Positions 4,360 to 33,309 of a stretch of DNA of 64,000 bases are shown piece by piece. Source of the stretch: Bacillota bacterium (GTDB lineage: Bacteria > Bacillota > DTU025); NCBI GenBank assembly GCA_050951805.1, contig JBMNJT010000002.1, positions 800,001 to 864,000 on the forward strand, in the 5' to 3' direction. The notes under the pieces were generated by a model. It was not told the DNA's origin and searched no databases. It saw only the letters and a list, made by a program, of their open reading frames with translations. Position numbers and translations under genes: made by a program. Each line of letters begins with the position of its first letter. The stretch's first letter is position 1.

Positions 4360-4679
4360 TATGCTCTATTTTATACTATATCTCTTATATGACGCTTGTA
4401 CGAGATAAATGCGAGTACAGCCTGAACCAATAATCAGTGGAGATTGTTCGGGTACCCCTGATTTGCATGATGGCGATCTGCGTAGTCGATGTATGCATCG
4501 AAGCCATGCTGTTTCAGATCAACGTGGCGGCAGTGGGCGAATGACAGGAAACAGTAGAGCATTGGAAAAGCTGCCGGGGAATATGGGGCAGTGTTGACTG
4601 AGCAATGTATGTGCGTTAGGATTAAATCAAAATGAATCCGACTAGAGACTGCATACCTGAAGGTTTTTGACATGGTTCA

Positions 4680-4768
4680 CTCAGAGCAGGCGATCCCCCT
4701 AGGTGGAATGGGGGGTGGGGCCGGGCCTCTAGGCAGCGAGTGCATTCCGCGGCGCTCGTGGGACTGAG
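4680..4768 (+). ncRNA. NiCo (czcD) metal-sensing riboswitch aptamer
   Basis: P1 CTCAG/CTGAG encloses the conserved GAGCAGGC...GCCGGGC...GGCAGC...GTGGGAC elements; lies upstream of a CDF exporter. Confidence 0.85.
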
Positions 4769-6744: not shown

Positions 6745-6762
6745 GGCTTGGAGGTAATGATT

Positions 6763-9700
6763 ATGCGTTGTCTAGGAAGATCAGCCCGCGTTAGCCATGC
6801 AATTGTTTTGGCCGCGCTTCTTGCCTTGTTTATGGCTCCAGCGGCGATGAGCGCGCGGGAACCGCAGGTGTGGCTTTTTGCAACGGCAAGGAATTACTTG
6901 CCCGAAAACGAACCTGAACTCGGAATCAGGGGCTACGGTGTAAAGGAACTTTGGCTTGATATTTACAAATTTGATGGCTTCCGGCACTTCAAGAATGGCG
7001 ATTGGAGTGCTCTGTGGAATGTGAACTACAAGGATCTGCCGGGGCGGGAAAAGGTGCGCTCTGTCCGTGTCGACATAGCGAGGCCAGGCGGCACGCTTGA
7101 TGCAGCCGTCAAACTTAAACCTCTGCCTCCAGGACAATACGTGGCAGTTGCCAGATCCGGGCAGCTCAAGACGGAGGAAGCGGCTTGGTTTGCCGTGAGC
7201 GAGTTGGGGCTGATCTCAAAGCAGTACTCGCGGGGGCTTGTAATCTATGCCGTCAACCTCAGAACAGGCGAACCCATGCCCAACGTGTCGGTATATGCTA
7301 AACTCTCGAGCATGAGCGGTTCTGATGCGTCTGAGCGTTTTGACCAAGAGACGGTGGAGTCTGGAGAAAAGGGCGATATCGGCGGGGCTGCTGTGGTGAG
7401 TGTCGGCTCCGTTTCTGTTCCAGGCGAAGTTTACGGGATGACAGACAATCGAGGGCTATTCACTATAGACCTGGCCGATTCTGCAGATTCGGCCTTTGTA
7501 GTGGCAGCAAAGGGCGATGACTTCGCCGTGCTCAACTCGTCTTACTGGTGGGATGCACGGACGCAAAAGGTTTATGTGTATACTGATAGACCTGTTTATC
7601 GGCCGAACAACGTTGTTTATTTCAAGGGAATCGCCCGGGGCATTACCAATTCGGGTTATGAAGTATTGGCCCGTCGACCTGTCAGGGTAGAAGTGCGCGA
7701 CCCTCGCAACAATGTCGTCTATAAGCAAGATTTGCTCACCAACGATTGGGGTTCTTTTTCGGGCGAGTTCAAGCTCGGAGCTGAACCGCCATTAGGCCAT
7801 TACTGGATATGTGCAATTGTTGACGGAGAGCAGCATGAAGGGAGCTTTCAGGTAGCGGAGTATCGAAAACCTGAATGGGTTGTGGAGATCGAGTTCGACA
7901 AAGAGATGTACATTGCCGGCGATCGTCTCGATGCCACGTGCAAAGCTCTTTACTATTTTGGAGCTCCTGTAAGGAATGCCCGGGTGGCCTATCGTGTCTA
8001 TCGCCAGCCCATGGGCTTTTTCGGCCCAACTGCGGAAGATTCGGGCTACGATTATGACCAGTATGGCGGCGTAGATGACATGGTTGGGTTGTATTATGGG
8101 GATTTTGTTCTTTCAGGCGAAACTCGGACCGACTCAGATGGCTTAGCGCGGATTTCCTTCGAGTCACCTGCAGCCGATGGCCATAATTACAGATATATAG
8201 TGGAAGCAGACGTCATTGACGCAACAAACAAGAGGGCATATGGAAGAGGATACACCGATGTTGCCAGAGGCACAATTGACGTCGACGTTTCGACTGACCG
8301 TTACGTAGTCCGGGAGGGAGACAAATTTGAAGTATACGCGAAAGCGGTCGATCTCGACGGCAACGGAGTGGTCAGGGACATCGATATTATCGTGCTCAAA
8401 CGGAGTTACAGCAAGAAAGGCTACACTGACACGCCTGTCCACTCAACCCGAATCACAACTGCTGCATCGGGCGATGGCTTCATTGAGCTGGAAGCAGGAA
8501 AACCCGGAGATTACGTAATTCAGGCCAAGTCCGAGGATGAACGTGGCAATGCCATAATCGCGGAGACCTATATTTGGACGACTCCGGACAATGGATCGTG
8601 GGCCGACATGTTCCGGACTGACCTGGGTATTGTGTGCGACCGAGGCAGATACGACGTAGGCGATGTTGCGAAGGTTCTGATTACTGCGCCGCCTGAGGTA
8701 AGCTCTGTCCTTCTTACAGTTGAGGACAGAGAAGTTCGGGATGTGCGCGTCATTAGGCTCGAGAACGGGTCAGCAGAGGTGGAACTGGCGATTAAGCCGG
8801 AATATGCCCCAAATACGTATGTGAGTGTTGTTGCAATAGTGTCAGGTGTTATGCAGACAGCGGCGCGCCAGATCGTGATCCCTGTTCCAGAACGTCTACT
8901 CAATGTCGAGATAAAGCCGAACAAAGACTCGTACCGTCCCGGGGAGACTGCAACGTATCTGATCGTGACTGAGAATTCTGATGGAGATGGTGTTCCAGCT
9001 GAAATATCCTTCGGTTTGGTGGACGAATCGATCTACGCGGTCAGGCCCGACACCACGCCTGCAATCGACAAGTTTTTCCACGGACGTCGCGAACGGACTG
9101 TCTCAACGGAGAACTCTTTTCCGGTGACTTATTATGGCGGCGCCGAGAAAGAAGGCGGCACAGAGGCGACACGCAAGTACTTCCCTGATACAGCCGCATG
9201 GTTTCCGTCTGTTGTGACAGACAGCAATGGTCATGCAGTGGTTCGGGTTAAGATGCCTGATTCGCTTACCACGTGGCGAGCTACGGTAAGGGCACATACG
9301 CGTTCCACCATTGTTGGGCAGGCCCAGGAAAAGGTGACCGTGAGCAAACCGCTTTCAATAAGACTTGGAATTCCGCGCCACTATACCATGGGCGACTGTG
9401 GGCGTGTAACGGGGGTTATTCATAACGAGACCAAGTGGCAGCGGATAGTCTTCGTGAACCTCAACGCGAGCGGCGCTAAGATCGTGGGCTGCTCATGGCA
9501 GTGGGTCAAAGTGCCTGCCAGTGGAGAAGCTGTGGTGGAATGGGAGGTAGAGCCGGAGACCGTGGGCGATGTGGTCTTCAAGGCAAATGCCTGGTCCTGG
9601 TTTGTTGGAGACAAACTCGCGTTGTCTGTCCCGGTTCTTCCGTTTGGAGAGAAGTGCGATGAAGTCTGGGCCGGCGAGGTGCGCCCTGACGGAGGGCGCG

Positions 9701-11322
9701 GGGAGAATGACATCGAGTTTGATTTGCCCGATGACATAGTGCAGGGAGCTACGTCGCTATCAGTGGATATCTCTCCAGGGTACGCTGGTGTTGTGGAGTC
9801 TGCCCTCGAATTCCTGGTCAATTACCCGTATGGATGTGTTGAACAGACGATGAGTGCTTTCCTCCCCGACATATTGGCACACCGCGCTTTTGCTTGTATG
9901 GGGATCCCCATGCCAAGGACTGAGGAGGAGCTTGCCGACATGGTCAATTCCGGACTTGCGCGCCTCTACAAGTTTCAGCATTGGGATGGTGGGTACGGTT
10001 GGTGGGAGCACGACGACAGTGGCCTATGGATGACTTCATACGTGCTCTACGGCTTGGAAAGGGCGAGGCGGAGCGGGTTCTGTGTAAGTGAAGAGGCAAT
10101 GGCAAGAGCCGCCGATTACCTGAGGGAAGCAGTATGGGATGAGAAGAGCGATACGAACCGCGCATTTGCCTGTTACGTCCTGGCGGAGCAAGGCGCCTTG
10201 GGCGCAAAGGGCATGAAGGCCCTTGAACAGCTTGCCGCGAAACTCCCGGCGTACCCCAATGTGGAGCATGGAAGGCGGGTTGCAGCTGAATCGCAATCGC
10301 TGAAACCATTGACTGTTGCATATGTAACACTGGCGGCGTCGGCTGCAGGACGCGACGACATGGCATCGGCAGGCGCGGAGACTCTGAGGAATATGGCGAC
10401 TGTGATTTCAGGGCAGGCGTTTTGGGAGACTGAGGATAAGGAAAATTGGTGGAGGAATGAAACTGGCGAGACCACTGCATGGGCCATGATGGCTTTGCTC
10501 GAGGCTGAACCTTCCAGTCCGCTTCTATCGCAGGCTGCCCGACATCTTGCTATGACAAGAGACGGGTCACAGTGGAGATCAACGCGGGAATCCGCTGCAG
10601 CAATCATGGCGTTGGTAGAGTACATGACCGCTATGGAGGAGGATGTCAGACAGCGAAGGCAAGTGACGGTGGAGGTCAACGGGCGGCGTATTGCCAAGGA
10701 ATACTTGGGAGGAGATTCAGGCTACGAGGCCGCAAACTTGTGTGTCAAGATCGACCCCGAATTTCTAATAGTCGGGAGAAACTCGGTCAAGATATCGGCC
10801 GAGGGAGGTCCTGTTTACTACAGCATTAACGCATCATGGCATGAAGCCCGTGATCGCATTGAGGCGGCAGGAGAGTGCGCAGACATTGTCCGCACATATT
10901 TTGTCATAGACAGAAATGCCGAGGCCCCGGAGGGCGAAGAATATGCGCTGATTCCTGTGGATGAGGATACTCCTGTCATGTGCGGACAGGAGCTCCTTGT
11001 GAGGGTCGCCATTGATGCCAAGCGCGACATGGATTACATGATTTTCGAGGATCCTGTTCCGTCTGGGTTCGAGATATCCGAAGGCTTTACTGATCCATGG
11101 TCTTGGAATTACTGGTATGATAGGCGAGAAGTTAGGGACGATAGAATGGTTTTCTTTGCAACATGGATCAAAGCGGGCGAAAGCATGGTGTTTGACTATA
11201 TTCTCAGACCTGAGCGACTGGGACGCTACATGGTGATGCCTACTCGAGCCTGGTCAATGTACTATCCTGGATTAAGAGCGAATGGGGCGAGCAGGGTGAT
11301 CGAGGTGGCTGATGGGGAATGA
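6763..11322 (+). CDS. Bacterial alpha-2-macroglobulin
   Basis: YTDRPVYRP, EYRKPE, MPDSLTTW, thioester YPYGCVEQ (GCVEQ codons at 9832-9846), DPVPSGFE; GGAGGT RBS favours ATG 6763 (ORF track starts at 6748). Confidence 0.95.
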   Translation: MRCLGRSARVSHAIVLAALLALFMAPAAMSAREPQVWLFATARNYLPENEPELGIRGYGVKELWLDIYKFDGFRHFKNGDWSALWNVNYKDLPGREKVRSVRVDIARPGGTLDAAVKLKPLPPGQYVAVARSGQLKTEEAAWFAVSELGLISKQYSRGLVIYAVNLRTGEPMPNVSVYAKLSSMSGSDASERFDQETVESGEKGDIGGAAVVSVGSVSVPGEVYGMTDNRGLFTIDLADSADSAFVVAAKGDDFAVLNSSYWWDARTQKVYVYTDRPVYRPNNVVYFKGIARGITNSGYEVLARRPVRVEVRDPRNNVVYKQDLLTNDWGSFSGEFKLGAEPPLGHYWICAIVDGEQHEGSFQVAEYRKPEWVVEIEFDKEMYIAGDRLDATCKALYYFGAPVRNARVAYRVYRQPMGFFGPTAEDSGYDYDQYGGVDDMVGLYYGDFVLSGETRTDSDGLARISFESPAADGHNYRYIVEADVIDATNKRAYGRGYTDVARGTIDVDVSTDRYVVREGDKFEVYAKAVDLDGNGVVRDIDIIVLKRSYSKKGYTDTPVHSTRITTAASGDGFIELEAGKPGDYVIQAKSEDERGNAIIAETYIWTTPDNGSWADMFRTDLGIVCDRGRYDVGDVAKVLITAPPEVSSVLLTVEDREVRDVRVIRLENGSAEVELAIKPEYAPNTYVSVVAIVSGVMQTAARQIVIPVPERLLNVEIKPNKDSYRPGETATYLIVTENSDGDGVPAEISFGLVDESIYAVRPDTTPAIDKFFHGRRERTVSTENSFPVTYYGGAEKEGGTEATRKYFPDTAAWFPSVVTDSNGHAVVRVKMPDSLTTWRATVRAHTRSTIVGQAQEKVTVSKPLSIRLGIPRHYTMGDCGRVTGVIHNETKWQRIVFVNLNASGAKIVGCSWQWVKVPASGEAVVEWEVEPETVGDVVFKANAWSWFVGDKLALSVPVLPFGEKCDEVWAGEVRPDGGRGENDIEFDLPDDIVQGATSLSVDISPGYAGVVESALEFLVNYPYGCVEQTMSAFLPDILAHRAFACMGIPMPRTEEELADMVNSGLARLYKFQHWDGGYGWWEHDDSGLWMTSYVLYGLERARRSGFCVSEEAMARAADYLREAVWDEKSDTNRAFACYVLAEQGALGAKGMKALEQLAAKLPAYPNVEHGRRVAAESQSLKPLTVAYVTLAASAAGRDDMASAGAETLRNMATVISGQAFWETEDKENWWRNETGETTAWAMMALLEAEPSSPLLSQAARHLAMTRDGSQWRSTRESAAAIMALVEYMTAMEEDVRQRRQVTVEVNGRRIAKEYLGGDSGYEAANLCVKIDPEFLIVGRNSVKISAEGGPVYYSINASWHEARDRIEAAGECADIVRTYFVIDRNAEAPEGEEYALIPVDEDTPVMCGQELLVRVAIDAKRDMDYMIFEDPVPSGFEISEGFTDPWSWNYWYDRREVRDDRMVFFATWIKAGESMVFDYILRPERLGRYMVMPTRAWSMYYPGLRANGASRVIEVADGE

Positions 11323-13065: not shown

Positions 13066-13777
13066 TCTACTTGAAGACTGTTCACCTAAGATTATTGCAG
13101 TGCCGATTACGCCGAGGACAGGAACGAATAGTCGTCGGAGCGCAAACAGGCAAAGCACTTATGCCAAGAATGAACAGGCAATGCCGAGATAGGCCGAGGT
13201 TGAGAGCTATCTGTGGCCTAGCTACGACGGATTTGGGCGGCGGGCCGTCGGGAACGACAAAACATGCCATGACTATCGTCGCTAGGCCTGCCTGGCAAGC
13301 ATTTGTTGCCAATGTGCCGTAGGGGTCCGTTGAGGACTGTATACATCGTCCATGCCAAAGAAGAGGTGAGTGGGATTGGAACGTTGCGAAGACAATGGGC
13401 GTCTCATACGCCCTGGCCTACACTTCCTGCGACGACAACCCAGCCCCTTGCTGCGGATAGAAGTATACCTGCCAAGCGAGAAAATGGCAAGAGGCCGTTA
13501 TCGTCCAGCCCAACGCTGCGGGAATGTAAAGCCCGGCAGTGTTCTCACGATACAAGTCGGTCGGTATTTCGGTAAAGGGGCGATTCGGTCTAATAGGGCC
13601 TTGGTGCTCACAGAGGCAGCTAAAATGCTAGTCTTTACCGCCCGGGGCGACACCTCAATTATATTTCATGGTTGTTTCGGAATTGAAGGGATTTGGCTTG
13701 CGGAGTCGAATTCAAATCCGAAGTTATCGGAGTGTTGCAACGGCGGCAATGGTCCGATGTTCTTGGGGGGTATTCGG

Positions 13778-14425
13778 GTGTCTGATGACAGAAAGACGCG
13801 ATTGGCTAAAGCAGAAGGGCGCATGCGCCTATTGCCTGGAGTCACCCGAGTGCGGATTCTTGAGTTGGCGGATGGAGATGAGATCCATGTAATGGTTGAG
13901 GGCTGTTATGACCAGGATGAGATCAAAAGGCTCAAGAAGGATATTGAGACCGTCTACTTGCTGGAAACTGGCGAGAGCATTGATTATCGTAGAATCAGCA
14001 TAGCACAGATCAGGGAGAAACATCCGGATGACCACGCCGGTTCCAACGGCAGGCCCGTTCTCAGCAGGATCTCCGTCGAATATGGGCAGGGAGGCGCAGT
14101 AGTTGCCTATGTGGACATAGAGTTTGGCGGAGAGTGTTACTCAGGTTCGGCGAATGGGAGAACGATTGAAGAACCGCTGAGTAATATAGTCAAGCGCGCC
14201 ACGTTGAAGTCCATTGAAAAGTTGTTGGGCGAAAAATATGCGTTGCAGGCCGATTGTGAGATAGCAGATGGAAGGGTGATTTCCGAGATTACTCTCATAG
14301 ATAGCAGCTCCGGGCAACGCCAAAGGTATTTGGGGGCTGCCTACAAGAGGGATGACATTTCCACGGCGGTTGCCAGATCTATTCTTCAGGCTTTAAACCG
14401 CCAATTTGAGCTCCTAGTAGACTGA
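13778..14425 (+). CDS. Conserved hypothetical protein (EIHV...DIET...IDYRRISIAQ; C-terminal GAA..D...AVARSILQALNR)
   Basis: G-rich RBS before GTG 13778, in frame with ORF 13370-14425. The C-terminal part resembles a LeuA allosteric-type small domain (by eye). Confidence 0.7.
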   Translation: MSDDRKTRLAKAEGRMRLLPGVTRVRILELADGDEIHVMVEGCYDQDEIKRLKKDIETVYLLETGESIDYRRISIAQIREKHPDDHAGSNGRPVLSRISVEYGQGGAVVAYVDIEFGGECYSGSANGRTIEEPLSNIVKRATLKSIEKLLGEKYALQADCEIADGRVISEITLIDSSSGQRQRYLGAAYKRDDISTAVARSILQALNRQFELLVD

Positions 14426-14514
14426 GCAGAAGAATTACCCGTCGCGGCGCGAGATGAGAGTGAGAGATGAGCTGAGCCTCCCAGGTTAATTACGACCGAT
14501 GGGTGGTGAAGCGA

Positions 14515-14607
14515 GTGAAGAAATTTGCTCTGTCGGCATTGATAGCTACAGCCATGACGCTGCTGATGTCAGTCATGGCTTTTGCTGACACATTTCTGAT
14601 GAAGTAA
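14515..14607 (+). CDS. Small secreted pre-peptide MKKFALSALIATAMTLLMSVMAFA|DTFLMK (30 aa)
   Basis: RBS GGGTGGTGA at 14501-14509, GTG start, basic n-region, hydrophobic h-region, A-F-A cleavage motif, TAA at 14605-14607. Below the ORF-track size cutoff. Confidence 0.75.
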   Translation: MKKFALSALIATAMTLLMSVMAFADTFLMK

Positions 14608-14613
14608 CAAGAT

Positions 14614-14676
14614 AGGCGCCGTTAAAACTTCGCCAAGCGCCGCCAATAGCGGCTTGCCGCGGCGGGCCTTTTGTTT
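14614..14676 (+). terminator. GC-rich structured element with U-tract between the peptide and HD-GYP genes
   Basis: aggcgccg...cggcgggcct pairing with an internal hairpin, followed by TTTGTTT. Confidence 0.4.
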
Positions 14677-14714
14677 GATGGGGATGGTGTGATTGCGATC
14701 AAAGCATCGGGGAC

Positions 14715-15986
14715 ATGGCGGGAGTGATAGGATTGCCTCGGGACAGGCACGTTTTGCATGATGTTTATGTGTGGTCGCTTGTAGCTCTCTCAGTTGTGCT
14801 AGTAGGACGCTTTATTGAATGGGATATGCCGCTCGGATCAGCGCTGGCGTTTATCGGATTGCTTTGGGCATCATCGCTGTCTGTCATAAACCTGAGAAAC
14901 ACCGTGGTCTTGATGCTCCTTCCCATAATGATGACGCCTGTTGTCAAATACAACCCTGGGGCCACTGCAGTTATTGCAGCCATTGGGAGTGTGAGCATCC
15001 AGGAGATCCGGATCTTGAGGGAAAACAATTCGCCGTATCTTTTCATCCTCAAGGTTTTGGGGAACCGGGCAAGCATCATGCTGTGTGCCCTATTGTCCGG
15101 ATTGGTATTCCATTCGCTTTGGCCCGCAGCCACTGTGGATTTTGGAGATGTCAGATTCCTGGCAGCGTTTGCAATTGCTGGTCTATCATGGGTGATGTTG
15201 TCAGGAGTCATAATCAACTTCCAGATCCTGCTCTCGGAGCCCAAGTTCGAGGCGAAGATCGATCCTGCCGTGATCATCGGCTCATCGCGCTCGCTGGTGC
15301 CGTCTGTGATCATGGGATTGATGGCAATGGCCATGTACGAGTATGGGGGCCTTATTCTATTTACCTTAGCTCAACTCTTTTTTATCTCGAACAAGAACTA
15401 CACACAGCGAGCCCTTGTAGATAAGGAAAATGCTGAACAGATCAACTTGGCCCTGGCAAGAATCATCGATTCCAAAGATCACTATACCGGAGGCCATTCT
15501 GAACGTGTGGCGATATTAGCCCGTCAGCTTGCAGAGGCATGTAGACTTCCCGGAGCAGATGTGGACAGAATAGAGTATATCGCCAGGCTTCACGATGTGG
15601 GCAAGGTTAACCTCCCCGATGAAATACTCTCGAAACCCGGCCGGCTTACTGGCGAGGAATATGACGCGGTAAAGAGGCACCCAGAATGGGGGGCTGAGCT
15701 GATTCGAGGCATGGAAAGGATATACAGTGATCGCGATTACAGAGCTATTCTTGAGCATCACGAGAGATATGATGGCGCCGGATATCCCTATGGCAAGAAA
15801 GGCGAGGAGATATCGCTTTGGGGGCGCATCCTGGCGATATGTGATGCTTATGATGCAATGACGAGCGAGCGCGTTTATAGAGAGGCGCTTCCTGTCGAAG
15901 CAGCCAGGTTCGAGCTTAAGCGGAATTCAGGAACTCAGTTCGATCCTGAGTTGGTAGATCTGTTTCTGTCAAACGTTCAGGAGTGA
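14715..15986 (+). CDS. Multi-TM membrane protein with HD-GYP cyclic-dinucleotide phosphodiesterase domain
   Basis: About 7 hydrophobic helices, then KDHYTGGHSERV, LHDVGK, HHERYDGAGYP, DAYDAMTSERVYR. Confidence 0.93.
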   Translation: MAGVIGLPRDRHVLHDVYVWSLVALSVVLVGRFIEWDMPLGSALAFIGLLWASSLSVINLRNTVVLMLLPIMMTPVVKYNPGATAVIAAIGSVSIQEIRILRENNSPYLFILKVLGNRASIMLCALLSGLVFHSLWPAATVDFGDVRFLAAFAIAGLSWVMLSGVIINFQILLSEPKFEAKIDPAVIIGSSRSLVPSVIMGLMAMAMYEYGGLILFTLAQLFFISNKNYTQRALVDKENAEQINLALARIIDSKDHYTGGHSERVAILARQLAEACRLPGADVDRIEYIARLHDVGKVNLPDEILSKPGRLTGEEYDAVKRHPEWGAELIRGMERIYSDRDYRAILEHHERYDGAGYPYGKKGEEISLWGRILAICDAYDAMTSERVYREALPVEAARFELKRNSGTQFDPELVDLFLSNVQE

Positions 15987-17971: not shown

Positions 17972-19795
17972 ATGTCTGTTTCTATGCCGGATGGTTCAAT
18001 GGAGATTCCGGAACGAAAGGATGTTCCTGCTGAACTCAAGTGGAAATTGGAGGACATCTATGCATCAGATGAGTTGTGGGAGGCGGATGTAGCTAGTCTC
18101 CTGGGGAGACTGCCGGAGCTAGCCTCCTTGCAAGGCAGGATCGGACAAAGCGCTGAAGATCTTCTGAAGGGCCTTGATTTGCTCAATGAGATCAATATGA
18201 TCGCGGCGAAGATCTATGTATATGCCCGCATGCGGAAAGACGAGGATAACGCGAATTCCAAGCATCAGGCTATGTACGAACGGGCAGCAAGCCTTGTGGT
18301 GCAGGTCAGTTCCACTGCATCCTTCATCAGGCCTGAGTTGCTTGAGGTTGACGAAGACACGTTGGAAGAGTATATGGCGGAGAACGCAGAGCTCGAGCTA
18401 TACCGGCATTTCTTGCATGACATATCACGCATGAGAGCACATACGCTTTCTGCTCCGGAGGAACGTCTGATCGCCATGGCTGGGGAGGTTGGCGAGGCTG
18501 TTTCCTCCATATTCACCATGCTCAACGACGCCGATATCAAGTTTGGATCGATTGTGGATGAAGAGGGCAATACCGTAGAGCTGACCAAGGGAAGATATAC
18601 AAGGTTTATGGAAAGCCCGGACAGACGTGTGCGCAAGGAAACGTATGACGCATTGTACTCGTCGTACGGGTCTTTGATAAACACAATAGGATCCACTTAC
18701 TCTGCGTCTGTAAAGAGCGACGCGTTCAACGCGAGGGCGCGCCGGTACGATACCTGCCTCGAGGCTGCGCTCGACAAAAACAACATACCTGTCAATGTCT
18801 ACAGCAACCTGTTGGAAGCGGTCAGGGACAGGCTCGGATTGATGCATAGGTACGTCGCCCTGCGAAAGAAGGCTCTGAAGCTCGACGATGTGCACATGTA
18901 TGATATATATGCACCTATAGTTCCGGATATCGAATGGACGGTCACATACGAGGAAGCAAAGAAGACTGTCTGTGAAGGCCTTGCGCCGCTGGGCGATGAA
19001 TACGTGAGCATCCTTGGGGCAGGTCTCGAGTCGGGGTGGGTGGATGTCGTCGAAAGCAGGGGGAAGACATCTGGGGCTTATTCCTGGGGCGAGTATGGAA
19101 CCCATCCATATGTCCTCTTGAACTGGCAAGACAACTTGGACAACATGTTTACTTTAGCCCATGAGATGGGCCATGCCATGCATTCACATTATTCCTGGAC
19201 AACACAGCCCTACGTATACTCTGATTACTCCATATTCCTGGCCGAAATCGCCTCTACAGCTAATGAGGTGTTGCTTATGGAACATCTGCTCGGCCTGACG
19301 GAGGATCAAGTGCGCAGAATGTACTTGCTCAATCACCTCCTTGAGCAGTTTAGGGGCACACTTTACAGGCAGACGATGTTTGCTGAGTTCGAGAAGATAG
19401 CCCATGAGAGGTATGAGGCAGGCCAAGCCCTGACCCCGGATGCGCTCAACGACATCTATCTGCAGCTCAACAGGGATTACTATGGAGACGAGATAGTGCT
19501 CGATGACAGGATCGCCCTCGAGTGGGCGCGAATCCCGCATTTTTACAGTGCTTTCTATGTATACCAGTATGCTACAGGGTTTTCGGCAGCGGTTGCATTG
19601 GCCGAAAGTATACTGGAGCATGGAGACCCGGCGAGGGATCGATACATCGAGTTTTTGAGAGGTGGAAGGTCGAAGTATCCCTTGGACCTTCTGCGTGACG
19701 CTGGAGTGGACATGACATCGCCGGATCCTATTCACCGAGCGCTGGACGTGTTCGAGAAATCTCTGGAAGAGATGGAAACGTATTTTAGAGGATAG
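17972..19795 (+). CDS. pepF: Oligoendopeptidase F (M3B)
   Basis: KWKLEDIY, GKTSGAYS, HEMGH, AEIAS, WARIPHFY..FYVYQYATG. Confidence 0.96.
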   Translation: MSVSMPDGSMEIPERKDVPAELKWKLEDIYASDELWEADVASLLGRLPELASLQGRIGQSAEDLLKGLDLLNEINMIAAKIYVYARMRKDEDNANSKHQAMYERAASLVVQVSSTASFIRPELLEVDEDTLEEYMAENAELELYRHFLHDISRMRAHTLSAPEERLIAMAGEVGEAVSSIFTMLNDADIKFGSIVDEEGNTVELTKGRYTRFMESPDRRVRKETYDALYSSYGSLINTIGSTYSASVKSDAFNARARRYDTCLEAALDKNNIPVNVYSNLLEAVRDRLGLMHRYVALRKKALKLDDVHMYDIYAPIVPDIEWTVTYEEAKKTVCEGLAPLGDEYVSILGAGLESGWVDVVESRGKTSGAYSWGEYGTHPYVLLNWQDNLDNMFTLAHEMGHAMHSHYSWTTQPYVYSDYSIFLAEIASTANEVLLMEHLLGLTEDQVRRMYLLNHLLEQFRGTLYRQTMFAEFEKIAHERYEAGQALTPDALNDIYLQLNRDYYGDEIVLDDRIALEWARIPHFYSAFYVYQYATGFSAAVALAESILEHGDPARDRYIEFLRGGRSKYPLDLLRDAGVDMTSPDPIHRALDVFEKSLEEMETYFRG

Positions 19796-31217: not shown

Positions 31218-33309
31218 GTTCGCCCGGCATGTTTGTTGAGCCGATGGACTGAAAGAAGTCCTGTCACCTAACCAGCGGGAAGACAACCCCAAGGCAAGGG
31301 CGTCGCTGAAAGCGGCGGGGTCTGAAGGAAGCTTTAAGGGGGAACACGGAACGTAGCGAAAGCGAACCGAAGTTGGCCTGTCAGGTGGGTAACCTTGCGA
31401 AGTATGGGAAAGCCCGAAAGCTGGATAACCTGGGGGGTTAGGACGGACGGGTTCGTGTTCAGGCAGACAAACTTAACCGGGGAAGCCCTGCATCATCCAG
31501 ATAGCTGGTAAGCCCAAACAAGCGGAGACGCAAGGATGGGAATATGTGGTGTGGGGTGGCAGATGAGTCCGTAGTAGTTATGAACCCTCAGCCCATGAAA
31601 GCTGGCAACAGACCGGAGGATAAAACTGAGGGGACAGCGGCCGGGAGCTGCTGGGCTGCATAGGCCAAAAGCCTGTGCAGTTGCGAAGGGACGAAGGCAA
31701 ACCAAAGCGTGCAACCTAGTTACAGGCAAGCATGGGAGAGAGATAACAGAGGCTGAAATGCCGATGGGAACGGGGGAGCCGGGGGCGACGAGTCTGCTGG
31801 TCCCTGCGCCCGCTCAGCAGAGTATCAAAGTTTCGCGGGGTAGATTGCCTTAGAGCTAGAGACGCCTCGCAAGCCTTGGGAAGAAACTGCAACCATGCAA
31901 GCTTGATGGCCAAGGAAGCACGGCGAGATGAAGGAGCTAATTGATGAAACACTACAGCTTGATCGATAAGGTTTACCGGATGGATAACCTTAGAGCTGCA
32001 TACAGGGCCGTCAGGGCCAACAACGGGGCTCCCGGGATAGACGGTGAGACCGTGGACGCCTTCGGCGAGAACCTGGAAGCCAGGCTGGCAGAGATTTATC
32101 AGGAGCTCAGATCAGGATCTTACGAACCAAGTCCGGTGCGGCGGGTAGAGATACCGAAGCCAGACGGAAGCAAAAGGCCTCTTGGCATACCCACCGTTGG
32201 CGACAGAGTAGTGCAGCAAGCGCTGCTCAATGTGGTTCAGCCAATCTTCGACCCCGAATTCCATCCATCAAGCTATGGGTACCGACCCGGGCGATCCTGT
32301 CATCAAGCAGTGGCAAAGGCAGAGAGGTTCATTAATCGCTACGGTCTCAAGCACGTAGTGGACATGGACTTGTCAAAATGCTTTGACCGACTCGATCATG
32401 ACCTGATCATTGAGTCTGTGAACCGAAAGGTCAGCGACGGAAGCATACTTAAGCTGATCCGGAAGTTCCTTGAAGCAGGAGTCATGAAAGACGGGGCCTG
32501 GGAGGAAACAACCATAGGCAGTCCGCAAGGCGGAGTAATATCGCCTCTTCTTGCCAACATCTATCTTGACTACTTTGATCAAAAGATGAAGTCAAAGGAC
32601 ATCAGGATAGTGAGGTACGCTGACGATATACTCATCTTTGCGCGGACAAGGCGACAGGCGGAAAAGTTCTTGGAGATAGCGTGCGAGATCCTTGAGGGCG
32701 AGTTAAAGCTCGTTGTGAACAGGGATAAAACGCACATAACCAGCGTCTATAAGGGAGTGCCCTACCTTGGGTTTGTCATATACCCTAAGGTAGTAAGCAT
32801 ACACCCCAAGAAGCTGGCGAAGTTCAAGGACGCCGTCCGCAAGCTGACTCCCCGCAATCATGGGATGAGTGTTGAGCAGATGGTGAAGCGACTGAACCGA
32901 TTCCTTCGTGGATGGATCAACTACTTTCGAATTGCGAACTGCAAGACGATAGTAGCCAGCCTGATGGGGTGGATAAGGCGGCGTCTGAGGATGAAGCAGA
33001 TGAGGGAGTGGAAGAGCTGGAGGGGCCTGCATAAAGCACTTCGAAGGCGAGGCTACTCAGGCGAATTCCTGAAGATATCCATGAGACGATGGAGGAACTC
33101 GGCAAGTCCTCTGGTCAACATGGCGCTTCCTCAGGCTTGGTTCAGTGAGATAGGACTGATTGACCTCACGAAGTATGAGGTCGGCGTCTTGCATCTCTTC
33201 TATGAAGCGAAGTGACTAAGGTTTGCCAGGAGCCGTGTACGGGGCCCGTACGCACGGTTCTGTGAGAGGGATGACGCCAGGCTGATTACCTGGCGCCACC
33301 CTACTCGAT
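31218..33309 (+). mobile_element. Intact group II intron, class IIC-like
   Basis: 5' GTTCGCCCGGCATG after a hairpin; domain V GGAGCCGTGTACGGGGCCCGTACGCACGGTTC (33229-33260); domain VI and 3' end CTACTCGAT. Confidence 0.92.
31944..33215 (+). CDS. ltrA: Group II intron reverse transcriptase/maturase (no endonuclease domain)
   Basis: GAPGIDG, RPLGIPTVGDR, SYGYRPGRS, PQGGVISPLLANIYL, RYADD, GWINYF. Confidence 0.96.
   Translation: MKHYSLIDKVYRMDNLRAAYRAVRANNGAPGIDGETVDAFGENLEARLAEIYQELRSGSYEPSPVRRVEIPKPDGSKRPLGIPTVGDRVVQQALLNVVQPIFDPEFHPSSYGYRPGRSCHQAVAKAERFINRYGLKHVVDMDLSKCFDRLDHDLIIESVNRKVSDGSILKLIRKFLEAGVMKDGAWEETTIGSPQGGVISPLLANIYLDYFDQKMKSKDIRIVRYADDILIFARTRRQAEKFLEIACEILEGELKLVVNRDKTHITSVYKGVPYLGFVIYPKVVSIHPKKLAKFKDAVRKLTPRNHGMSVEQMVKRLNRFLRGWINYFRIANCKTIVASLMGWIRRRLRMKQMREWKSWRGLHKALRRRGYSGEFLKISMRRWRNSASPLVNMALPQAWFSEIGLIDLTKYEVGVLHLFYEAK

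Follow-up and report, generated by a model that had tools for sequence, protein, structure and literature searches.

A small open reading frame (sORF) of 30 codons lies between a conserved gene, here called gene A, and the gene for a membrane-bound HD-GYP protein in a 64,000-nucleotide (nt) stretch of DNA from a Bacillota bacterium of the DTU025 lineage (GenBank assembly GCA_050951805.1, contig JBMNJT010000002.1, positions 800,001 to 864,000 of the forward strand). This whole stretch is referred to as the window. The layout had been noticed in a first-pass annotation made from the sequence alone, which described the ORF as unannotated and on the same strand as both neighbors, and it was confirmed here; all three genes are located on the + strand at the positions given in Table 1. 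The sORF is conserved as a coding gene, accompanies the membrane HD-GYP gene far outside the lineage of the window, and is enclosed in a structured RNA. Its product is tentatively read as a genetically encoded ligand or subunit of the membrane domain of the enzyme, a MASE9-type sensor; the peptide would act in the cell that makes it, and its supply would be metered by the RNA. Of the four explanations weighed below this is the one given the most credence, although it is held with reserve.

The micro-peptide gene and its distribution

The sORF starts with GTG at position 14515. The start codon reads GTG in 11 and ATG in one of the 12 loci that were tabulated by column (locus L010, left out because of an extra codon, also reads GTG), and the codon preceding it varies freely among relatives. 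The start chosen in the first-pass annotation is thus borne out by codon conservation. In relatives the sequence GGGAGGTG is found 8 nt upstream of the start. In the product, MKKFALSALIATAMTLLMSVMAFADTFLMK, the motif A-F-A precedes the last six residues. The sORF was present in 13 of 13 orthologous close loci (the window and 12 further genomes of the same and the sister family), each time between gene A and the enzyme gene. Pairwise differences among these loci numbered 437, 286 and 894 at codon positions 1, 2 and 3, and synonymous codon changes made up 570 of 1,191 differing codon pairs in frame, as against 136 of 1,205 and 98 of 1,217 in the other two frames. Because it is kept in all close loci and its differences are mostly synonymous and in the third position, the 30-codon ORF is, on comparative grounds, a genuine coding gene. 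It is present as a single copy in its own genome.

The N-terminal two thirds of the peptide keep their hydrophobicity with a free sequence. The tail varies among close relatives (D/E, F/C, M/V/I, K/R), and the most conserved residues adjoin the stop codon. The layout of a signal peptide is matched by sequence, with MKK, a hydrophobic run and A-F-A in 12 of the 13 close loci, an extra G and A-L-A in L010, and an A-G-G-A-like motif in most distant relatives.

For a distant sample, 102 gene A loci were assembled, 22 from a profile search of the phylum and 80 fetched in addition. A membrane HD-GYP gene follows gene A in 60 of them, and all 60 carry a hydrophobic sORF of 20-31 amino acids (aa) between the two genes. 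Among the 42 loci where no HD-GYP gene was recognized, the sORF or its leader was seen only in L049, in L137, which has a MASE9 ORF outside the GYP search pattern used, and in L053, L068 and L114, which lie on cut contigs. Gene A is followed in these 42 loci by SecA-like ORFs, by SpoVS-like and sigma-factor-like ORFs (all labels assigned by eye from the N-termini), by another copy of gene A, or by the end of the contig. As the sORF is found in every locus with the enzyme, and the remaining gene A loci mostly have neither, the peptide travels with the enzyme rather than with gene A. A search that started from the Pfam family MASE9, independently of gene A, recovered the sORF in 23 of 30 loci, one of the 30 having no upstream sequence; in L169 the sORF is present and the scan showed no upstream ORF of at least 150 aa. 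The conclusion that peptide and membrane HD-GYP protein belong together is supported by these sequence comparisons. A scan of homologous loci for small ORFs had been suggested at first pass, and conserved ones were found in all close and distant HD-GYP loci and in most of the MASE9 loci.

The cassette is strictly syntenic in every family in which a gene-A-linked enzyme was found. Two types of peptide were distinguished. Most are 24-29 aa long and end in L-A-G-G-A-x-[WFY]-[KR]-W or a similar sequence; the second type, with an A-[FL]-A-[DE]-T ending, occurs in the lineage of the window, in L051 and in L018. Both have a small-x-small motif before the tail, which is 4-6 residues long in 60 of 68 peptides when counted after the chosen anchor. 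Identical tails are shared by several genera. By its sequence distribution the cassette belongs to Bacillota related to Thermincola, Desulfosporosinus and Phosphitispora and is not confined to the lineage of the window.

In L014, L020, L049, L067, L097 and others, a SecA-like ORF stands directly after the cassette, or after gene A where sORF and HD-GYP gene are missing. As it adjoins the cassette in some loci and gene A alone in others, the sORF and the enzyme gene look like a unit that is gained or lost between gene A and secA. Locus L049 (G334) has the sORF and its leader of AGCGG repeats, with no HD-GYP ORF within about 840 nt before the SecA-like ORF; the enzyme gene may have decayed there. 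Tandem gene A paralogs were observed in L063 (G284:C48), the second of them followed by sORF and HD-GYP gene (L056). Among close relatives, genes for an alpha-2-macroglobulin-like protein, VanW, HAD, gene A, sORF, HD-GYP and a Na/Pi cotransporter are collinear (11 related loci from metagenome-assembled genomes). Gene adjacency in these genomes was discounted as independent evidence, because the whole surrounding region is syntenic.

Table 1. Features of the locus, with positions counted from the first letter of the window
Feature	Position	Strand	Remarks
Conserved non-coding element CAATTATA	13656-13663		upstream of gene A in 13/13 close loci
Promoter-like element AGGGATT-N13/14-GAAT	13687-13711	+	64-89 nt before gene A in 13/13 close loci
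Gene A	13778-14425	+	215 aa; conserved part from GTG 13778; alternative ATG at 13757
Long-range helix, 5' arm	14438-14448	+	pairs with 14656-14666; brackets the sORF cassette
Conserved leader	14450-14482	+	three (A/C)UGAG repeats; nearly invariant in 13 loci
Anti-Shine-Dalgarno GCUGAGCCUCCC	14471-14482	+	ends the leader; pairs with Shine-Dalgarno region 14501-14512
Shine-Dalgarno region of the sORF	14501-14512	+	predicted sequestered; RNAalifold columns 39-50 with 69-80
sORF	14515-14607	+	30-aa hydrophobic micro-peptide; given in the ORF list from GTG 14503, 34 aa
Parts of the sORF peptide			n-region KK; 21-residue hydrophobic stretch ending A-F-A; tail DTFLMK
Long-range helix, 3' arm, and U-tract	14656-14666; U-tract 14669-14676	+	terminator-like hairpin with TTTTGTTT (terminator scan)
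Membrane HD-GYP gene	14715-15986	+	423 aa
Membrane sensor domain	14715-15449	+	residues 1-245; about 8 hydrophobic segments; invariant N117
HD-GYP catalytic domain	15453-15986	+	predicted c-di-GMP phosphodiesterase

The RNA cassette and its cover in RNA libraries

The long-range helix that closes the cassette has 11-14 bp in the lineage of the window. None of 11 pairs is lost in any of the 13 sequences, and two of them show compensatory changes (G-C to A-U and A-U to G-C). The predicted structure of the window cassette has a minimum free energy of -97.6 kcal/mol (z -4.5), and none of 200 shuffled sequences was as stable. A good ribosome-binding site had been noted before the sORF at first pass; a Shine-Dalgarno (SD) sequence is indeed present, but it is predicted to be paired with the anti-SD upstream, and this RNA structure had been missed.

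In 56 of the 60 distant loci a helix was located at the same two places with a different sequence, 8-24 bp long (median 14) and spanning 167-390 nt, as determined with a contiguous-helix finder. Double changes were present at 14 of 19 consensus pairs in an alignment of 36 sequences. Many relatives have 0-20 nt between the stop codon of the sORF and the 3' arm, and 2-30 nt between that arm and the start of the enzyme gene; at least five T within 12 nt after the helix were counted in only 38 of the 60 loci. The role of the helix may therefore differ by lineage, with termination, RNA processing and coupling as the candidate functions.

The distant leaders contain AGCGG repeats, at least three copies in 49 of 60, with a density of 2.29 per 100 nt compared to 0.28 in gene A. 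All seven of seven pairs of the distant leader hairpin covary; 82.9% of the cells are paired, versus 70.1% in shuffles, and none of 500 shuffles reached as high a value. When 151 genomes were searched with a covariance model of this leader (R1), 27 had a match, in every case a single one and at this locus; the leader in the lineage of the window, with its (A/C)UGAG repeats, is not matched. A general riboswitch was rejected as an explanation of the leader motif on the grounds that R1 has one site per genome, always at this locus. The AGCGG repeats as a target of gene A were likewise rejected, being missing from gene A loci without the sORF. No Rfam family matched the cassette region of the window at gathering score, with matches in the window at E <= 5 at chance level only, and none was found on the cassette in 20 distant loci. 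As far as sequence and covariance searches reach, the sORF cassette is an RNA architecture not found in Rfam. A cspA thermoregulator (RF01766, 86.4 bits) was recorded near the cassette in one distant genome (L060, 3072-3469, - strand).

Six metatranscriptome runs contain the stretch, and four of them, from three studies, were mapped; their contigs carry no strand and prove neither single transcripts nor transcript ends. The sORF is covered by RNA contigs in four of four runs. Contigs of runs X15, X16 and X19 run through the helix into the HD-GYP gene and bridge gene A, sORF and enzyme gene, and a contig of run X17 (14458-14673) ends in the U-tract. Contigs start at 13743-13753 in four of four runs, about 30 nt downstream of the AGGGATT-N13/14-GAAT element, one of them opening with adapter sequence at 13743. 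Positions 13591-13687 have no contig cover in four of four runs. The uncovered positions and the contig starts are a weak hint of a 5' end. In X17 and X19, depth is greater on the sORF contig than on that of gene A, an observation that was not used, as contig depths cannot rank genes.

The enzyme, the predicted binding of the peptide and rival explanations

The HD-GYP domain was described as intact at first pass, and this holds; PF13487 (HD_5) matches residues 247-413 over model positions 3-170 of 170 (E = 4.1e-36), PF01966 (HD) matches with E = 3.3e-19, and the catalytic motifs LHDVGK (HD) and HHERYDGAGYP (HHE..DG.GYP) are present in the translation. The protein is predicted from these motifs to be a phosphodiesterase for cyclic diguanylate (c-di-GMP). 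The roughly 245 hydrophobic residues ahead of this domain have no Pfam match in the window's protein. Its N-terminal part was taken at first pass for a domain of some seven transmembrane segments; the membrane domain stands, and the count is now about eight hydrophobic segments. The family PF20972 (MASE9) was matched by 16 of 27 aligned homologs (best E = 8e-13). Residues 1-245 of the window's protein gave no PF20972 match at E <= 1, and its whole genome gave none at E <= 0.01. The nearest Atlas clusters, found as language-model neighbors, carry MASE9 on 13-35% of their members, and searches of solved structures with the membrane domain returned chance-level matches only (E about 0.09). The accessible part of the description of MASE9 proposes ligand binding within the membrane, reports Asn and Ser in the membrane and poorly conserved periplasmic segments, and names no ligand there (10.1101/2021.11.05.467447). 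Across the 27 sequences the features of this description were observed, namely about eight segments, some of them short, polar membrane residues and poorly conserved outer loops; N117 is invariant. The membrane domain of the enzyme is thus classed, by homologs and sequence features, as a divergent MASE9 sensor domain. Hydropathy and K/R counts in the 27 sequences indicate a topology with both ends inside, the K/R-rich loops at residues 52-66, about 105-116 and 172-196 being assigned to the cytoplasm.

A co-fold of peptide and receptor had been proposed together with the first-pass annotation. The co-fold joined the peptide to residues 1-245 of the enzyme, with a separate alignment for each chain and no membrane modelled, and scored 0.64 versus 0.01 for the best of three controls, which were unrelated natural proteins and possibly not hydrophobic. 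Of 80 solved complexes 58 score as high, as do 2 of 110 mismatched pairs; these counts are approximate because own alignments were supplied. Between runs at least 72% of the contacts are shared, and the partner has a predicted local distance difference test score (pLDDT) of at least 55. Only residues 23-30 of the peptide (FADTFLMK) make confident contacts, so that the C-terminal eight residues, including the hexapeptide proposed at first pass, are placed by the model in a pocket of the membrane domain. On the side of the enzyme the contacts involve N117 and residues 57-70, 113-124, 159-170 and 186-200, a conserved, polar pocket around the invariant N117. A physical link between peptide and enzyme is supported by this model.

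The following mechanism is suggested. Gene A, the 30-aa micro-peptide and the MASE9-HD-GYP phosphodiesterase would form one transcription unit. The hydrophobic N-terminal part of the peptide would keep it within or next to the membrane of the cell that makes it, where its C-terminal tail (FADTFLMK in the window, AGGA-x-[WFY]-[KR]-W in most relatives) would dock in the polar intramembrane pocket around N117 and set the activity of the cytoplasmic HD-GYP domain. The supply of the peptide would be set at the RNA level by the long-range helix, the SD-anti-SD pairing and the repeated leader motif, and in the lineage of the window the U-tract after the helix would partly terminate transcription before the enzyme gene.

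Several points weigh against this mechanism. Translation of the peptide, its location in the membrane and its binding are all predictions, and such a co-fold may reflect no more than a general tendency of greasy peptides to associate with membrane domains. By the positive-inside rule, the charges of the peptide would place it with the N-terminus inside and the C-terminus outside, yet the pocket appears to lie on the cytoplasmic side; either one of these assignments must be mistaken, or the tail gets to the pocket by some other route. Counted from the last N-terminal K or R, the hydrophobic run measures about 15 residues in most relatives, which is short for a membrane span and resembles a signal peptide. 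Six of the 30 MASE9 loci have no sORF, comprising three with longer MASE9 proteins, two with MASE9-HD-GYP paralogs (L161, L162) and L170. Covariation of peptide and receptor, another test suggested at first pass, proved inseparable from phylogeny. Mutual information between tail and receptor columns is higher at the predicted contacts (1.78 versus 1.49, Mann-Whitney p = 6e-7) and was set aside in view of a two-clade structure and uncorrected phylogeny, and a pairing of the peptide Asp with receptor Arg118 was rejected, as R118 also occurs with tails that lack an acidic residue.

The short hydrophobic core would suit a different explanation, in which export of the pre-peptide is followed by cleavage behind the small-x-small motif, and the resulting peptide of 4-6 residues (DTFLMK in the window) builds up outside and is sensed as a quorum signal by the MASE9-HD-GYP proteins of neighboring cells. 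Hydrophobic pre-peptides of 22-24 aa with active C-terminal 7-8 residues are familiar from Firmicutes (SHP, PrgQ, ComS). Throughout the family the n-h-c layout persists, with small residues at -3 and -1 as suits signal peptidase, the tails have the required length in the large majority of peptides and vary among close relatives, and the co-fold contacts exactly the C-terminal eight residues. The pocket residues, however, are located on K/R-rich loops and inner helix halves on the cytoplasmic side, which conflicts with a signal arriving from outside, and the periplasmic segments of MASE9 are poorly conserved according to the accessible part of its description (10.1101/2021.11.05.467447). Identical tails in several genera are unlike the diversification typical of pheromones. 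No gene for export or processing was noticed among the ORFs viewed, which covered short flanks only, although the general Sec system and signal peptidase would suffice. Likewise, no RRNPP receptor or AgrBCA-type gene was found among the ORFs examined beside the cassette (alpha-2-macroglobulin-like, VanW, HAD, Na/Pi cotransporter and PepF-like, and the SecA-like ORFs of other genomes), other neighboring ORFs being unscanned. A released signal is on balance considered unlikely. The first-pass annotation had named the membrane HD-GYP protein as the cognate receptor of a peptide signal between cells; the link between peptide and enzyme is retained, but secretion, cleavage and cell-to-cell signaling are partly disfavored by the predicted cytoplasmic-side pocket, the identical tails across genera and the tight control at the RNA level.

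The sORF immediately precedes the enzyme gene and lies in a structured leader, flanked by the two arms of a terminator-like helix. This could also mean that it acts mainly in cis, as a leader or arrest peptide without a target: its translation, or a ribosome stalled at its conserved C-terminal codons, would remodel the cassette and so set read-through into, or translation of, the HD-GYP gene, in the manner of TnaC, SpeFL and classical attenuation. The most conserved residues adjoin the stop codon, and both terminated and read-through RNA contigs were seen. In many relatives a terminating ribosome would overlap the 3' arm, since the arm begins so close to the stop codon; in the lineage of the window, by contrast, the arm lies about 48 nt after the stop, beyond the reach of that ribosome. 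An N-terminal part whose hydrophobicity is kept with a free sequence is what marks a membrane or signal segment, as opposed to a tunnel-arrest peptide, and the co-fold score against the controls also speaks for a target. Action in cis as the main role is improbable, less probable again than a released signal; cis and trans roles are compatible with each other. Pairing of the mRNA ends and a sequestered SD are hallmarks of type I toxin mRNAs, and both are present here together with a small hydrophobic peptide with charged ends. The cassette might accordingly be a toxin-like module in the manner of hok or aapA1, with a membrane-damaging peptide, an mRNA silenced by 5'-3' end pairing and SD sequestration, and an incidental neighborhood to the enzyme. 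Against this, the sORF is single copy in its own genome and the leader model has one site per genome; the cassette is strictly syntenic with the enzyme, with co-occurrence in 60 of 60 loci, and its distribution is neither patchy nor multicopy. No antisense RNA was identified, the strandless contigs allowing no dedicated look. Such a module is very improbable. In order of decreasing probability, the ranking is thus a same-cell ligand of MASE9, a released signal, a cis leader and a toxin-like module.

Gene A, neighboring features and known systems

Gene A has no Pfam or NCBIfam match. Its AlphaFold2 model (pLDDT 83.7) is that of a cytoplasmic protein with an N-terminal alpha/beta domain. The fold of the C-terminal half is akin to that of the regulatory domains by which LeuA and citramalate synthase bind leucine or isoleucine (Foldseek, 3fig/3f6g, E = 4e-5 to 1e-4; target-normalised template modelling score up to 0.55). 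LeuA_dimer (PF08502) matched one of ten remote homologs tested (E = 2.9e-6), is carried by one listed homolog, and did not match the protein of the window. Judged by the model, the product of gene A may sense a small molecule. Only 14 close clusters were found among 5.8 billion proteins; a profile finds 949 cluster representatives and matches 157 of 401 genomes and 112 of 277 genera of the phylum. Named carriers of homologs include Phosphitispora sp., Thermincola potens, Desulfosporosinus orientis and Acididesulfobacillus, all with the annotation hypothetical protein. The upstream protein had been regarded as a partner of the peptide system at first pass; a conserved link is upheld, an obligatory one is not, as homologs of gene A also occur without sORF and enzyme. 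In L065, L076, L089, L109-L111, L115-L117, L124, L127 and L129, the place of sORF and HD-GYP gene after the gene A paralog is taken by a SpoVS-like ORF and then an ORF for a SigH-like sigma factor (named by eye), neighbors that hint at a sporulation-related context for the gene A family. The promoter-like element upstream of gene A resembles the SigH-type promoter consensus; a SigH-like promoter as a family-wide feature was rejected (4 of 22 distant loci versus 4 of 103 control windows).

An ORF of 1,524 aa at 6748-11322 has a signal-peptide-like start and is alpha-2-macroglobulin-like by reading of its sequence; it is followed by VanW (PF04294), and both are syntenic in relatives. Two genes downstream of the HD-GYP gene, an ORF of 607 aa (17972-19795) resembles oligoendopeptidase F (PepF) by reading of its sequence. 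PepF degrades Phr peptides in B. subtilis. The window also contains a NiCo (nickel/cobalt) riboswitch at 4672-4768 (54.8 bits) and a group II intron with domains D1-D4 at 31302-31472 and the catalytic domain at 33228-33309.

Gating of the phosphodiesterase by the peptide, if real, would amount to a new means of adjusting second-messenger levels; should the peptide also leave the cell, cell density would feed directly into c-di-GMP turnover. MASE9, like most membrane sensor domains before c-di-GMP enzymes that are described in the accessible part of the same source, has no known ligand (10.1101/2021.11.05.467447), and an unannotated conserved micro-peptide beside the enzyme is a concrete candidate. 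The broader claim, with chances that we regard as evenly balanced, is that MASE9 domains are receptors for encoded micro-peptides, that this is the first peptide-gated c-di-GMP phosphodiesterase, reading the C-terminal tail of its ligand in an intramembrane pocket, and that a new class of structured RNA, bracketed by a long-range helix and with an AGCGG- or UGAG-repeat leader, meters peptide supply and read-through into the enzyme gene. The locus also adds a widespread family of micro-proteins missed by gene callers and an RNA architecture not found in Rfam, and its carriers include the cultured anaerobes Thermincola potens and Desulfosporosinus orientis.

The closest described proteins are the MASE9-HD-GYP proteins TM1467 of T. 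maritima and HdgA of S. venezuelae, which have the same architecture of about eight hydrophobic segments with polar residues followed by HD-GYP; in the accessible part of their description no partner or upstream small ORF is named (10.1101/2021.11.05.467447). The copy of the window differs from them in being too divergent for the Pfam model. In the accessible part of the paper on Streptomyces HdgA, no small ORF is mentioned. The first-pass annotation knew of no characterized system of this layout, and none was found in searches of the literature on MASE9 and on HD-GYP proteins with small proteins or microproteins, supplements not being covered. The small membrane proteins behind c-di-GMP riboswitches in C. 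difficile share with the present system the link to c-di-GMP, the occurrence in Bacillota and a structured leader with premature termination; as given in the accessible part of the source, they have 58 aa, are multicopy, follow class I c-di-GMP riboswitches and have no homologs outside C. difficile (PMC13724677). The present peptide has 20-31 aa and a single copy, its leader has no Rfam match, its neighbor is the phosphodiesterase itself, and it belongs to a different family.

The order of a small regulator gene, an intergenic terminator RNA with short repeats and a regulated gene is shared with hutP-terminator-hutHUIGM and antitermination by TRAP and HutP. Here the repeats follow the sORF and not gene A in their distribution, the intergenic RNA encodes a peptide, and nothing observed ties gene A to RNA binding or mechanistically to the peptide. 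SHP/Rgg, PrgQ-iCF10/PrgX, ComS-XIP/ComR and Phr/Rap have in common with the sORF a precursor of 22-45 aa with a basic N-terminus, a hydrophobic core and an active C-terminus of 5-8 residues that often starts with D or E; prgQ, too, sits in a structured RNA with a conditional terminator. Those peptides are read by cytoplasmic RRNPP-type receptors after re-import, whereas the candidate receptor here is a membrane phosphodiesterase. Small membrane proteins that modulate membrane sensor enzymes are known from MgrB-PhoQ, SafA-PhoQ, PmrR-LpxT and Prli42-stressosome. We know of no sequence relationship between them and the present peptide, which resembles them in having fewer than 50 residues, one hydrophobic segment, a location near, or co-regulation with, a larger membrane signaling protein, and predicted binding to a membrane domain. 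It differs from them in its target, a MASE9-HD-GYP protein, in the predicted contact of its C-terminal tail with a polar intramembrane pocket, and in the place of its gene, immediately upstream of that of the target within a structured RNA.

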